A stretch of 64,000 nt of DNA from a virus. The position numbers were made by a program, and so were the translations under genes. The stretch is from the IMG/VR virus record IMGVR_UViG_3300045988_096785, positions 41,968 through 105,967 of that record. One strand, written 5' to 3'. The notes under the pieces were generated by a model. That model was not told where the DNA came from, made no database searches, and saw only the letters and a list, made by a program, of their open reading frames with translations. Below, piece after piece: positions 8,653 through 64,000 of this stretch. Numbering within the stretch: the first letter of the stretch is position 1; every line of letters begins with the position of its first letter.

Positions 8653-8692
8653 TTTGTTACGTGCTTCATGCACGTATGTTTAACAATTAAAT
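8653..8692 (+). promoter_or_regulatory. Bacteroidetes-type promoter candidate (-33 TTTG, -7 TAtgTTTA) overlapping a perfect palindrome TACGTGC-N4-GCACGTA (8658-8676)
   Basis: TTTG at 8653-8656 and TATGTTTA at 8675-8682, about 19 nt apart. The palindrome could be an operator. ATG at 8703. Confidence 0.4.
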
Positions 8693-15189: not shown

Positions 15190-18100
15190 ATGACATCAAC
15201 GTGTATTATTAAAAGAGATAATAAAAATAAAGTTGTTTCTGTCTCTACCAGATCAGGGGACAGGTCTATGTTGTTTGATAAAATAGCATCTATTCCTCTT
15301 ATGGAGAATAGGGAACGGGCTACTACTGTTTTTAAAACCGTATTTTCTAATAAGTTCTTAAAGGCTTTTGGTGACTGGAGAAGGAATGTGCCTATCAACA
15401 AACAGGCTTATAATAAGGTAAAATCCAATATCGACCTTATTCCGGAAGCCTATAGAGAAAGGGTGCTGGATAAGGCTTCTAAGATGAGCAACCCTATTCT
15501 TGTGTCGAAATCAGATGCACCTTATGGGATTCAAGAATCGGGCTTTGGATTCTACAGCCAAGATCTGGGTGATAATATTATGTTGGTGGATGCTATGGTC
15601 CCGTCAAGTATTTCCGTACCGGAAGGACCGGGAATAGACGCCGGGCAGTATCTACAAGATGCTATATCTTCGGACTTCACTCCCGTATCTATGGTACGGG
15701 ATAAGGGTGTTAATTATATGGTTATAAAAGACGGTCTTAAGATATTTAGCCCAGAGGAGTTACCAGAAGCAGATTCTAATCCTGTGGGTGTAACGTATCA
15801 GACCGGAGAGCCTCGTTTGTTTTTTATGAACGATCGTAGTCAATTATTTGAAGATTACGGAGAAGCTCTTCGCTCTGGCGGGAATGATATCAGAATAGGG
15901 TTCTTATCCGGCATCGTTCAAGAATCTACCGTGGATGGAGTGGCAGACATTACTTACAAGGCTGGAAAGTATGTCCTTAACAACCCCAAATCTTTTATAC
16001 CTGTTATGACCGCCTCTACTTCCACTTCTTTATCAACAAAAGGTGGGATAATAAACTACCTTATAAAGAAAGGTCTTTTGTCCGGATCCAAGATATTCGA
16101 TCCGGAAACAAGAAGCTATTATCTTACAGGAGAAGGACATGCAGGACAAATTAGGCTTTTCAATTCAGCATTATCCTACACTGAGCTCCGTAATCATTTT
16201 GGTTCTGATGTTTCCATGAATGATCAAGGCATGATAACCATAAATTCATTGGATAATAGTAAGGTGACTATGAGACTCGCCACCGGAGGAACGGAAAGGG
16301 TTAGTAAGGAGCAGATAAAGAGCGATCTTAAGTCTGGAAGATACAATGAATTGGACGCCAAGTACGATCATTTTGATGCGCTTGTAGTTTCATTCATATT
16401 AGAAGACAATGATCTTTATGCTGATACTAAAGCTAAGATCGTATCGGATTATAGCCAAGAGGAACGTAATCAACGAAATTCTATTGTTGAGATACTGAAA
16501 ACGCTGGGCGTTAGTGTCGTTGGCATGACCGATTATATAGAGAAGTACCAAACTAAATACGGACACGAACCTTCTGCTAAGGCATTGGCGGATATTGCCA
16601 ATAACGTAATAGCAGTCGGTGAAGATGCTACTTTGTCTGACTTAGTAGAAGAAACAGCACACTTTCTCGTAGAGGCGTACAGAGATCAGAATGCTGTTGA
16701 ATCTGTTTTGCAAGATGTAGAAGGCACTGAAGAATGGAATCAGTATGCAGGTCAGTATTATAATACATACGGTAAGGTATATGAAGGCTCTGAACTTGAT
16801 AATGCTGTTAGGAGAGAAATTCTTGGAAAGATCCTCGCCAGGGAGATGCAGACCGGCACAGCACAGGCGCCGGTAGAGCCCACCTCCTTCCTGGGGCGCG
16901 TCCGGCAGCTTCTCTCTGGAATTGTAAACTGGCTTAAATCAGCTTTATCAACCCAAAGACAGGATTTGAATAACGTTATTAAAAATATTCGTGATCTTGC
17001 TATTACCGACATAGATAAAGGATTTGATACTTCTCTTTTGAAGGATAATGACTTTACATTATACTCCCTTTCTTCTATGAACAAGAACAAGTTTCTTGAG
17101 TCTAAAATCAGGGCATTGAGAAAAACGTTAAGAGACTTACGTCAGATAAGCTCTGATAGGGCTGTAACTACGTCTATGACCCTTGCTCAGCTTAAGACCA
17201 TAGAAGATAAGATAAATAAGGTAGAGACCGAAATAGACAAGAATGAGATGGCGGCTGCCATGAACAGCATGATCTCTACAGCCGAAGCTCAGGTCAGATA
17301 CTTAAGCAATGTGGTGAACACCATCCTTCATGGTGATACCAAAGACGGCAAGCTTCACTTCAATACCAATGATCGAAAGAACGTAGATATTATCAACAAT
17401 CAGGTTCTTCCGATCATGAACGATCTTCGAGGATATATCCGTAACAGAAGTACCGAATTTGATGAACGTGAAAAGCAGGATTATACAAATAGGATCAATA
17501 CCGTCATTGCAGACATCAATGGTATTCAGTCTGATATTAAATCAGTACAAGACCTTGATGAAAGCACGTTGCTTGATAAGTTAATGAACGAACTTCATGT
17601 GCCGGCAGATAAGGTAAAGAGAGTAAAAGAATTTTTTGACAAGGTTCAACACGATGTTTCTTGGATAAGTAGGTGGTTTGGTATATTAGAGCATTCTTCC
17701 AGCCCGTTCAATAACGCTCTTGGAACTATGATTGCCAAAGACAATTACAATGCGATGGTGAATGCCCAGCCCGCCATATCCGACTTCCTGGCATATGCGA
17801 AAAAGCATGGTTTTAACAAATCTGAATTTGAAAAACTGCTTCAGAAAGTAGACGGAAAAATTTCTAATTATCTTCGTAGTGCTCTTGATATGGCTAAATA
17901 CGATCGTAATAAGAAGCTGGCGCAGATGCGAGCGTTTGCGACCGCCATGAACATAGAGATATCAGAAGAAGAAATCAATGATGTGGTTGACAATAACCGT
18001 AATTACGTATTTAAAAGAGAAGTAGTTGACAAGGACGGAAATACGGTTACCGAGAACGCTAAATTTAAACCGTCGTCCGATAGGGTTAATACCGATATTT

Positions 18101-30538: not shown

Positions 30539-31067
30539 ATCTCATATTCTATTAAATATATTTAAAGCTATTCATATGTTTTAATACATCCCCTCGGAGA
30601 CCTTCCGGTCTCCTTGGTAGATGTAAATCCCGTTAGGGATAAGTCAGGATTTCTCCTGTAAGTACCCATCGCCAATGTTATAAGAGGTTTTATATAATGG
30701 CAACACTGTTTCGTCAAATACACTACTCCTGTTTAATCACCATCCTTAGAGCAAGAAACTTGGATAAACATTCCTTGGTAACTATTTATTCTCAAATAAC
30801 GTAGCCTCTGTTTCAAGGCTTAGGCTAATAACCCGATCTCTGAAAGAGATGTATTAAACTTTTATAATAGAATTATATTGGGTTAATACTATTTGGGGTT
30901 ATAACACCGATCATAATGCTTGGTCAGTTCTTCTGGTTCTAAATCTTGTCCAAAATCCATGTTAAAAATATCGTAATTAGTAAAGCACTGTTCCTGCCGG
31001 CAGGAAATCTATGAATGCTGCTTTTATTTCTTCAATTAGGCCCAAGTGTAACCTTGGGCCATTGTAT
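30539..31067. other. 530-bp structured noncoding region. Contains perfect hairpins GGAGACCttccGGTCTCC (30596-30613) and GGCCCAAGtgtaacCTTGGGCC (31039-31060), and the 16-bp palindrome TTCCTGCCGGCAGGAA (30991-31006)
   Basis: No ORF of 60 aa or more. Several perfect inverted repeats. A T-tract follows the 31039-31060 hairpin on the plus strand. Confidence 0.5.
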
Positions 31068-61008: not shown

Positions 61009-61069
61009 ATTTTAATTGTTAAACATTCCGATTACCACTAATCTATAGAATATAGTTTTCAACTCTCAA

Positions 61070-61186
61070 CCTATTGAATTTTGTAGAATAAACTCACATT
61101 TTGCTGTTTTAAAGCACTGTAATCCTTAATTTTGTGGGAAAACCCTACATAATGTTGTTTTAAAACGCTTATCTATTGAATTTTGT
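61070..61186. repeat. Direct repeat CTATTGAATTTTGT x2 (61070-61083 and 61173-61186)
   Basis: Exact 14-mer duplicated 103 bp apart in a noncoding region. Confidence 0.6.
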
Positions 61187-61252
61187 TGGTAGGGAGTGCC
61201 CTCCCCCTCCCTCTCTCCAACTCCCGCTAATCCTCCGGCTTTCCGCATAGAA

Positions 61253-61386
61253 CCCACGCCCTACCGCCTCACTACCGGCATACGGAGAGCGCTACAAGCT
61301 TATACTCTGGCATGGAGTATGGGGGATTTGGAGATAATATCATTCCATAGAGAGAATAGAGAGCCTTCAGCCCACGCCCTACCGCC
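61253..61386. repeat. Direct repeat CCCACGCCCTACCGCCT x2 (61253-61269 and 61370-61386) in a C-rich (minus-strand G-rich) island
   Basis: Exact 17-mer duplicated 117 bp apart. The minus strand at 61195-61215 carries GGGAGGGGGAGGG G-runs. Confidence 0.6.
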
Positions 61387-61720
61387 TGCTCCTCCTATCA
61401 AGATAGATATTTAAACCTATAATCAAAGCCAACAAAGAAAAGCAAAAGACCATTACAATATTATACTGATCCGGTCCGTACTCCAACATAGAGCGAATAC
61501 CAACCGACAGAAAATAAAGATCAGCTACTAATAAAAACCACCACATAGAATAAAAAAAATACAATAAGTATGTCCAAAAATACGGGGATTATAAAACCTA
61601 ACTAATTGATAATCAAGCATACCTCATTTTTAAGAAAAATACAATAAGCCTAATTTTCAATCCATAGAGACGAAAAAGGCGGCATCCGACACCCTATTTT
61701 GGGTCAGAAAACCGCCTCAA

Positions 61721-61817
61721 GTTTCGTTTTAGACCAATTTTAACGACATGATATAGACAAAATACCGGCATTATATCCGAATGGCCTTATTTTTGTTTCG
61801 TTTTAGACCAATTTTGT
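61721..61817. repeat. Direct repeat GTTTCGTTTTAGACCAATTTT x2 (61721-61741 and 61797-61817)
   Basis: Exact 21-mer duplicated 76 bp apart in a noncoding region. Confidence 0.65.
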
Positions 61818-61916
61818 CCACGTCCGCCGTTCACTCTCAGAATACCTACCCGTAAATAGAAAGAGTAGGATACGAAAATAGGGCTACTCCGATATTCGGA
61901 ACAACCCTATTCCTGT

Positions 61917-62367: not shown

Positions 62368-62407
62368 GCATTCCTATCCTATAGAGATTTTATGCTACAA
62401 CCAACAG
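62341..62407 (-). tRNA. Possible tRNA or tRNA-like element (T-arm TCCGG-TTCGATT-CCGGA plus acceptor-like GCAACCT)
   Basis: The plus strand shows CTCCGGAATCGAACCGGA. A 6 of 7 acceptor pairing to TGGTTGT exists, but the element is only about 63 nt. Confidence 0.3.
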
Positions 62408-62899
62408 CCCGTAATTAGTACGTAGTTCTTGCGTACAGGCCCGTACTATGTTTTTATTATATTTTCCGTCTGCTACACTATTTCGCCACACATAACGGCA
62501 TAGTGTCCTTGCGTTTTGATACGGCACGTCCCTACATGGTAGGCTACATGTTTATACCCTGTAATTTAATCTACAGCCTTGTCCTATTTTACGTGTAGGC
62601 AAGTAAGACACGTTTCGGTCTGGAGATAAACCGCGTACAACGGTATGTTTTCCAAACTGTACTAACATACCTAACATAACTACATTTATCCAATGTAATA
62701 CATGCAGTAATACCAGCCCTTTAATTGCCAACGGCAAGGGCAAAGGTATATCTATCTCCAATATGTAAAATAACTCTCTGTTTTGTCAGCTTCAGTCTAA
62801 AGCATACGCGGGACGTGCACCCACTGACAACGGCGTACAAGCGCGTTTAACGGTACGCGTCAAACCTTTGGAGAGCTTAACGGCGCTCTCCGTGCCTTG
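62408..62899. other. 490-bp GC-richer noncoding region with recurring GTACG/CGTAC and AACGG motifs
   Basis: No convincing ORF (62552..62761 is likely spurious). AACGG occurs 6 or more times. Several CGTAC-containing short palindromes. Confidence 0.4.
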
Positions 62900-63445
62900 T
62901 TACTGCTGGTTGCTTTCATGTGCGAGGTATTCACTTACACACTTTGCCACAGTGCGAATAGAATAAGATTTGATCTTAACAGCCACATAAGTAGCTTTAT
63001 ACTCGTCGTTTTCTTTTATCAACCATTTAGTGCTTTTTTTGGTCTCCAATGATTCGGCAGTAGTAAAACCAAATGATTTATATTCGCTACCGTAAACCAC
63101 ATTCTCAGCGCACCAATCAGCCGTTTTAGCCTCAACGCCTTTCTCTTTGTCTGCATTGGTATCCTTATACACTTTAGAGTATAAAGCAAATTTAACAAAT
63201 GTATCGTCAACTTTCGGTAACATTTGGCTACACACAGCTACCAGGCGTTTTTTATCCTTGGCGAGGGCTGCAACCTTTACGGCGTATTCTGCCGGTATTT
63301 CCAAGGCCTTGCAAATAGACTTAAGATCAGCTCCATTAGCAAATAAAGCGTTGTATAACTTTACGGCACCTACCAAATTTGCAGCGTTTTCTTTGATAAC
63401 AGCATTCTGTAGTTTGTTTACATTTTTTTTCGTAATCATATCCAA
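62900..63445 (-). CDS. Hypothetical protein, first gene of the leftward module (the real ATG is probably at 63439; the track start is TTG)
   Basis: ORF preceded by TGTTTAACAATTAAAAT about 10 nt upstream. Confidence 0.5.
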   Translation of the reverse strand: MDMITKKNVNKLQNAVIKENAANLVGAVKLYNALFANGADLKSICKALEIPAEYAVKVAALAKDKKRLVAVCSQMLPKVDDTFVKFALYSKVYKDTNADKEKGVEAKTADWCAENVVYGSEYKSFGFTTAESLETKKSTKWLIKENDEYKATYVAVKIKSYSIRTVAKCVSEYLAHESNQQ

Positions 63446-63664
63446 TATATTTTAATTGTTAAACAAATGATATTCAATTTAATGACCCACAACGCAGGCA
63501 ATTACAGATACATATATAGTTCACCCAACGGGTACACTATATAGATTCACTATGTTAACTCGTAATCTCTCTCGATCACGACGCAAATATACGACATTTG
63601 TCAATACTACAAATATATATACTATCTTTTTTTTGTTAATTTGTATTAATTTCGATTCTATTAT

Positions 63665-63813
63665 CTGATTATCAGCAATTTGCAAAACACACAAGAGCAG
63701 TACTATACGCGTACATTAATATGTAGGATATATGTTTATTTAAGTGGCTTATAATCAATATGTTATAATAATACATTGATTATCAATAATTTAAATAAAC
63801 TGTTGATAATCAG
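63665..63813. promoter_or_regulatory. Three TGATnATCA-type palindromes (CTGATTATCAG 63665-63675, TTGATTATCAA 63776-63786, TTGATAATCAG 63803-63813). Candidate operators or initiator sites
   Basis: Three related 11-bp palindromes within 150 bp, upstream of the whole minus-strand module. Confidence 0.45.
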
Positions 63814-63833
63814 CGAGTTTATATGTTTGAGGT

Positions 63834-63888
63834 GAAAACGCGTTTCCGGTTTTCCAGCGAAGGGGGTGTGGGGGAGAAAACGCGTTTC
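63834..63888. repeat. Two copies of the 12-bp perfect palindrome GAAACGCGTTTC (63834-63846 and 63876-63888) flanking G-runs
   Basis: GAAAACGCGTTTC x2 with GGGGGTGTGGGGGAG between them and GGGGGCGGGAGG after. Confidence 0.55.
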
Positions 63889-63947
63889 GGGGGCGGGAGG
63901 TTCGTGATAGGTACCCCCTCTCTCCCATCACATAAACATTTTTTTTT

Positions 63948-63980
63948 ACATCCATCATCACATCCATCATCACATAAACC
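63948..63980. repeat. Tandem repeat (CATCCATCATCA) x2
   Basis: ACATCCATCATCACATCCATCATCACATAAACC. Confidence 0.5.
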
Positions 63981-64000
63981 TCTTTCTCATATCTCTCCCA

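Follow-up and report, generated by a model that had tools for sequence, protein, structure and literature searches.

A conserved non-coding control region with a promoter match and repeated dyads between leftward operons of an epsilon crAss-like phage

Positions 63446-64000 of the DNA analyzed here (a stretch of 64,000 nucleotides, hereafter the window) make up most of a 0.65-1 kb conserved, non-coding, cis-acting control region in the genome of an uncultured human-gut crAss-like phage. We favor, with a probability of roughly 0.5, the reading of this region as a promoter preceded by an array of operators or enhancers and set between two co-directional operons. Along the minus strand, its elements follow each other in the order terminator (past the window end), tandem array, GC-rich core, AT-rich stretch, promoter, leader, and 181-aa ORF. 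The evidence comes from the position-conserved dyads and promoter of close relatives, from the layout kept in distant lineages, and from the near-invariance of the core.

Genomic setting and conservation of the region

Epsilon crAss-like phages, which are uncultured, abound in the human gut, and the two papers describing them leave intergenic elements unmentioned. The window belongs to this group, its last 2 kb being 87.6% identical to crAssE-Sib (OR575929; 151,256 bp, human gut), the sole GenBank phage that matches this part and a member of the genus 'Epsilonunovirus' within the epsilon crAss-like group (PMC11054128). Close relatives are found on >130 IMG/VR contigs. A tblastn search of GenBank phages for cultured relatives returned crAssE-Sib and one unannotated fragment, nothing else, and the core pattern was missing from 185,579 bacterial species genomes searched for prophage or plasmid carriage.

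The original prediction placed the region upstream of the whole leftward module. Alignment to crAssE-Sib, in which window position 64000 equals record position 2135 of OR575929, revealed a different setting. In that phage, leftward genes occupy the record from ~110.9 kb onward and, across the record junction, as far as position 17,367, the point at which the rightward terminase/structural block adjoins them. Past the window end they thus continue for ~15 kb more upstream of the region, in a segment that includes NrnA, polynucleotide kinase, tRNAs, dUTPase, SSB, clamp, RuvC, ThyA, and helicase. Because these genes lie upstream, 63446-64000 is an internal spacer between two co-directional operons. 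In relatives, the intrinsic terminator of the upstream gene stands just past the window end and is followed by a variable-number tandem array (VNTR-B), which the window end cuts, so that the window does end inside the region, as had been noted at the outset. The gene before the terminator is NrnA or, in a minority of genomes, an optional 130-aa ORF. This ORF (phrog_1365; 2226-2618 in the contig L001) sits between NrnA and the tandem array, just past the window end; most relatives lack it, and the site beside the array is thereby marked as a hotspot of insertion and deletion.

We considered whether the region could be the coding 5′ end of a gene starting beyond the window, an outcome that the original prediction had itself named as fatal. 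It is conserved non-coding DNA and not a gene start, and the ORF that overlies it is implausible. Specifically, the hypothetical protein WOZ57220.1 is annotated in OR575929 over the core and the array (1938-2105, corresponding to 63791-63973 on the minus strand of the window), and we rejected it as a real gene. This CDS is probably spurious, because relatives carry frame-breaking 1-nt indels and conserve neither a start codon nor a frame. More generally, 1-nt indels in the core, together with array units whose lengths are not multiples of 3, mark the core and the array as non-coding. Such 1-nt indels also alter the palindrome spacing among close relatives.

Conservation, the other point on which the original prediction could have failed, was found at two depths. 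In ~80 close relatives, the promoter and the operator-like dyads are conserved in position. In loci of distant homologues of the 181-aa protein, taken from Logan, ENA, and JGI assemblies, the elements are arranged identically: a GC-rich block is followed by ~185-245 bp of dyad-bearing AT-rich DNA, then by a TAnnTTTG(C/T)A box and the gene. This layout (core, AT-rich stretch, promoter, gene) is kept where the downstream protein is only 27-44% identical. The core itself is recognizably homologous in the L101/L110/L115/L116 and L104/L114/L117 lineages, where it reads ...ACCACCTACCATGAACCYCCCGCCYCC-AAAWCGCGTTTT-N-AAAACGCGTTTT and spans 42-43 bp from CGCG to CGCG with a different spacer sequence; the L108 core has a single palindrome. 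P0126 was absent from viral contigs in the search for distant loci.

Promoter, leader, and downstream gene

The best-supported component of the region is a putative host-type promoter (Bacteroidota primary-sigma type) that faces the 181-aa ORF, taken together with the dyads upstream and the one downstream that surround the invariant GC core. The original prediction overlooked this match (63584-63613, minus strand), which reads TTTG-N18-TATATTTG (-33/-7 boxes) and is the sole one in the last 3 kb of the window. It lies 145 bp upstream of the start codon, with the -7 box TATATTTG at 63591-63584 (minus strand) and a predicted transcription start near 63577 (minus strand). The likeness to known Bacteroidota primary-sigma promoters (-33 TTTG/-7 TAnnTTTG) extends to the exact boxes, the right orientation, and the presence of the -7 box in all lineages: a TAnnTTTG(C/T)A box precedes the homologous gene in 11/11 lineages examined. 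The differences are a spacer of 18 nt instead of the usual 19-21 and a -33 TTTG that, found at N18 in the window, is unconserved in crAssE-Sib and in the distant lineages. A sigma-54 promoter was discarded upon inspection of the alignment by eye, the GG-N10-GC pattern being absent in most lineages, and a search for an iteron-like half-site at the promoter gave no match within 3 mismatches.

The leader (5′ UTR; 63446-63583, minus strand) measures ~135 nt, is less conserved (0.76-0.85), and carries, besides an imperfect 14-bp hairpin (63513-63543), a copy of the AACAATTAAA motif (63451-63460). Seven copies of this motif are present in the window (at 8682, 32776, 48100, 49202, 57724, 61011, and 63451) versus 0.7 expected, most of them on the coding strand, and it is also found in distant relatives. 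At 61011 and 63451, the two sites checked, it precedes a start codon by 3-12 nt. It may be a translation-initiation leader motif.

The 181-aa ORF (62900-63445, minus strand; ATG at 63439) is the gene that the control region immediately precedes. With cluster representatives as the search set, homologues were recovered down to ~21-27% identity. The protein has no Pfam or PHROG match, and its AlphaFold2 model (pLDDT 88.7) yielded no structural match and no recognizable DNA-binding fold; neighboring proteins, surveyed for a regulator gene, gave no domain matches. The ~500 bp downstream of the ORF (62390-62900) have poor coding potential in the window and only a weak, sub-threshold Rfam match (RT-14, E = 4.2), and the counterpart in crAssE-Sib is annotated with a 95-aa CDS. 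Elsewhere in the window, at 30658-30902 (minus strand), a match to the Rfam HEARO RNA (IscB-associated omega RNA) scored 95.2 bits (gathering threshold, 83), which hints that the phage carries an IscB/IS200-605-type element.

Dyads, GC-rich core, and tandem arrays

The motifs that drew attention to the region do exist and are not random; their original description contained minor errors. Three 11-bp palindromes of the TGATnATCA type were reported; TGATWATCA is indeed found at all three places (63666-63674, 63777-63785, and 63804-63812), and the perfect 11-bp form in the first two only. The window holds 6 TGATWATCA sites versus 1.6 expected. An extended version of this dyad, TGATWATCARNNNNTT, searched with at most 1 mismatch, yielded 14 matches in the window versus 3.9 expected, a number that 0/100 shuffles reached, and 8 of the 14 fall within 63659-63819. 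The AT-rich stretch (63620-63830; ~210 bp, conservation 0.91-0.96) accommodates four 23-bp dyads with TGATWATCA-like cores, centered near 63670, 63753, 63781, and 63808, along with a 67-bp imperfect palindrome (63734-63800). In most close relatives, the TGATWATCA sites occupy fixed positions. A further conserved dyad, TGATAATCA, lies outside the region at 61607-61615, with the predicted genome start ~230 bp to its right, and is found at the same place in most relatives.

On the minus strand, 63797-63812 fits the IHF consensus WATCAANNNNTTR, which is that of E. coli, and an ATCAA-N4-TTA motif (again the E. coli IHF consensus) stands beside the core in the window and in the L101, L104, and L108 lineages. 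All crAss-like phages have IHF genes (PMC7886860). Three crAssE-Sib proteins annotated as 'DNA-binding' were scanned against Pfam for a phage IHF/HU, without a match.

The GC-rich core (63831-63926; ~95 nt) is near-invariant and occurs as a single copy per genome; nhmmer found no second copy in the window or in 110 kb of crAssE-Sib. Across 82 distinct relatives, identity over its positions 63841-63925 reaches 98-100%, above the 76-95% of the core flanks and the neighboring gene. The core contains two GAAAACGCGTTTC words, G-runs at 63862, 63870, and 63889, and a C-run at 63914-63926. The original prediction had read a 12-mer perfect palindrome, GAAACGCGTTTC, which is absent as written and was mis-transcribed: the word actually repeated is the 13-mer GAAAACGCGTTTC (63834-63846 and 63876-63888), and the perfect palindrome inside it is AAACGCGTTT. 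The G-rich string quoted as the spacer between the copies is part of it, and the full spacer is the 29-nt CGGTTTTCCAGCGAAGGGGGTGTGGGGGA. Similarly, both arms of the inverted G/C pair, GGGGGCGGGAGG (63889-63900) and CCCCCTCTCTCCC (63914-63926), are present, with imperfect complementarity. G or C runs of at least 5 nt are concentrated toward this end of the window, 7/15 lying after 60700 and 4 within 63862-63918. As for the claimed capacity of the G-runs to form a G-quadruplex, the canonical motif, with four runs of three or more G and no loop longer than 7, occurs nowhere in the window, and the relaxed motif at 63862-63897 (plus strand) qualifies only if a 14-nt loop is allowed.

The two core palindromes are centered on ACGCGT, and their centers are 42 bp apart, i.e., exactly four helical turns. 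This spacing (41-45 bp, mode 42) is kept in three lineages, L101 and L104 included, despite diverged spacer sequence. Helical phasing thus applies to the sites of both classes, at 42 bp for the ACGCGT dyads and at 27-28 bp for the TGATWATCA sites. In the whole 64-kb window, ACGCGT occurs at 4 sites, all of them in 62855-63885, that is, in the 1 kb around the 181-aa gene (p ~2e-5 by our own estimate). The third site, missed by the original prediction, is centered in the dyad TACGCGTA(C) (63701-63718; ACGCGT at 63707-63712), ~130 bp upstream of the predicted transcription start, and this dyad is the most widely conserved motif across lineages. The fourth, GGTACGCGTC (62855-62860), lies just past the stop codon of the 181-aa ORF; it was found at +560 to +590 in 27/49 close relatives and also downstream of the gene in L104 and L111. 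Among the 49 full-length close relatives, ACGCGT is almost confined to these four positions within 8.5 kb, and the L104 lineage has three upstream sites and one downstream, as in the window. The pattern is the strongest indication that a site-specific, probably dimeric, DNA-binding protein acts around the promoter and the gene.

VNTR-B occupies 63926-64000 and continues past the window end, with the minus-strand unit GTTTATGTGATGRGAGAGATATGARAAAGAKG. It begins with CATCACATAAAC-type units (63926-63943 and 63968-63985), likewise overlooked originally. Its units are GA-rich and irregular (27-33 nt), and their number varies from ~1 to 14 across 62 relatives, with 3-4 units in the window and crAssE-Sib and ~14 in L030. 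The tandem repeat of ACATCCATCATC in two copies was correctly reported; it is a 12-nt duplication (63948-63971) specific to the lineage of this strain and mostly a gap in relatives. The tandem array is absent in the L101, L104, and L116 types, and GA-rich or other repeats are carried by L105, L108, and L111. Since several lineages do without it, the array is not essential.

A sister element, region A (61071-61400), lies upstream of the next leftward operon. It consists of an array of 51-nt units (61071-61186; 2.3 copies in the window, up to 9 in relatives) adjoined by a GC-rich element of ~215 nt (61187-61400). Its minus strand has a relaxed G4 motif at 61199-61225, and some of its units bear a TAATTTTG box on the plus strand. 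Region A and the region under study (region B) contain the only non-coding tandem arrays found in the ~170 kb examined, and they bracket the predicted packaging start and a segment of low coding density.

Regulatory, replicative, genome-end, and RNA readings

Repeated dyad-symmetric sites, conserved in sequence and position and enriched over expectation, fit the repressor-operator array of the original prediction. Upstream of the promoter there are three ACGCGT-centered dyads and four 23-bp dyads centered on TGATWATCA. None overlaps the -33/-7 boxes, so the arrangement departs from classic repression, in which the operator overlaps the promoter. With the nearest dyad center (63670) ~90 bp upstream of the predicted transcription start, simple steric repression is unlikely. 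The closest likeness is to enhancer/loop control regions with an IHF bend and looped operators (gal, deo, lac), which is apparent in the paired dyads four turns apart and 260-300 bp upstream, the IHF-consensus site beside them, the AT-rich bendable DNA that follows, and the further dyad downstream of the gene. The region differs from these systems in that its promoter is not of the sigma-54 type and no operator overlaps it. Counting against the operator reading, near-invariance over 85 nt exceeds the needs of typical operators, and neither the fold of the adjacent 181-aa protein nor the Pfam scan of the three annotated 'DNA-binding' proteins pointed to a regulator.

In the mechanism that we propose, dimeric regulators of phage or host origin would bind both dyad classes, and an IHF-like protein would bend the AT-rich DNA. 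Such bending is suggested by the fact that all crAss-like phages encode such proteins and by the fit of the site near the core to the IHF consensus. The bend would allow a core-bound complex to loop to the promoter, and perhaps also to the downstream dyad, and the loop would turn the small operon, which runs toward the packaging start, on or off. In this scheme, the array of tandem units would serve as a fast-evolving spacer or as an auxiliary array of binding sites.

The main rival to this promoter-operator reading is a replication origin, formed by the region alone or together with region A, which we regard as doubtful. Here, the tandem units would be iterons, the GC core with its paired dyads the landing pad of an initiator, the IHF-bent AT-rich stretch the unwinding element, and the 181-aa protein a linked initiator or accessory factor, with the promoter alongside as in iteron replicons. 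The tandem array, GC core, and AT-rich stretch do fit an origin architecture as well. The component list resembles those of lambda ori, pSC101, and RK2 oriV: direct repeats, a GC-rich block bordered by ~210 bp of AT-rich DNA in which an IHF-like site occurs, and, next to them, a promoter and a gene. However, iteron-type origins have conserved repeats of constant length, whereas the units here are irregular in length, vary widely in copy number, and are dispensable in sister lineages (missing in L101, L104, and L116). There is no DnaA-box cluster, only one single-mismatch DnaA box; the 181-aa protein is unlike any Rep or other initiator, and the replication genes are ~24 kb away. The single copy of the core and its close association with a single gene family, maintained over deep divergence, are in keeping with an origin. 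So is a step in the GC skew of the leftward block from ~-0.32 to ~-0.17 across the region, but this step is not unique, with comparable variation elsewhere in the block, and the extremes of the cumulative skew, a check suggested by the original prediction, fall at strand switches and not at 63446-64000. An analogy is offered by the prototypic crAssphage, for which two candidate origins 2.6 kb apart have been proposed near the terminal-repeat region (PMC10983915).

The proposal that the region is a genome terminus conflicts with the published start of the crAssE-Sib record. Set by PhageTerm (p = 1.5e-22; PMC11054128), this start maps to window position 61836, 1.6 kb left of 63446-64000, which puts the region 1.6-2.2 kb away. 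We also deem it very improbable that the region is a packaging or genome-end element of another kind, either the right boundary of a ~2.9-kb terminal repeat from region A to region B or a terminase/injection-control site flanking the packaging start. Such an element would account for the contig ends of relatives, which form two clusters 2.9 kb apart (12 ends at 61055-61203 and 12 at 63945-64132), for the thousands of short-read assemblies in Logan that give the intervening 2.75-2.84 kb as a separate contig, for a PhageTerm start that falls between the two points, and for the restriction of non-coding tandem arrays to A and B. Both end clusters, however, lie inside the arrays, which by themselves break short-read assemblies and so make ends accumulate at both points; contigs that start at A or B carry the segment once only, none with two copies; and the crAssE-Sib paper gives a single start point and no terminal repeat (PMC11054128). 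Because the ends fall in arrays and the segment is carried once, it is no more than possible that the two arrays bound a terminal repeat. Two copies of GTTTCGTTTTAGACCAATTTT (61721-61741 and 61795-61815) just left of 61836 are candidate packaging-recognition repeats; the motif is found four times in the distant relative L101 (5723-6040).

It is improbable that the region is a non-coding RNA gene. On this reading a transcript, perhaps made by the virion RNA polymerase, would cover the GC core alone or the core together with the array. The idea draws on the crAss-like phage phi14:2, in which a pair of long intergenic stretches close to the genome end yields abundant early non-coding RNAs (bioRxiv 10.1101/2020.03.07.982082). 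Both phages are members of one taxonomic order, and here too a pair of long non-coding regions lies among small genes near the genome end, but the epsilon phage region is without sign of RNA structure and the likeness is one of analogy only. The two palindromes could pair into a 13-bp stem, a single substitution in L110 and L115 turns copy 2 into an exact reverse complement of copy 1, which is asymmetric, and the plus-strand hairpin has G-U pairs. Nevertheless, Rfam gave no match at gathering or E-value thresholds, folding of the core is not unusual (z-scores of -0.7 for the plus strand and -2.3 for the minus strand), and the covariation terms of RNAalifold were positive, that is, unfavorable, on both strands across five lineages. 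Moreover, L110 breaks the apparent compensatory pair of hairpin 1, L108 has only one palindrome, and the GC element of region A folds no better than shuffles. Rfam, folding, and covariation thus lend no support to a structured RNA at the core. A plus-strand TAnnTTTG box (63822-63829) followed by a T-run (63939-63947) would suit transcription into the core, but a plus-strand promoter at this box was rejected, as it is absent in L101, L104, and L108.

A tentative and rather unlikely reading joins regions A and B into a bipartite cis-element that would serve as origin(s), as the boundary of a terminal repeat or of injection control, or as a source of early non-coding RNA. Each combines a fast-evolving tandem array with a conserved GC-rich block, the two flank the packaging start along with a few genes, and the layout is kept across epsilon lineages at 27-44% protein identity. 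If this reading were true, A and B would be a genome-end organizing module new to Crassvirales. The two arrays systematically break short-read assemblies of these phages, and a genome 'end' or a 'terminal repeat' read off such contigs may be an artifact. Finally, the promoter, the two dyad classes, and the invariant core supply the biology of epsilon crAss-like phages with testable DNA sites.
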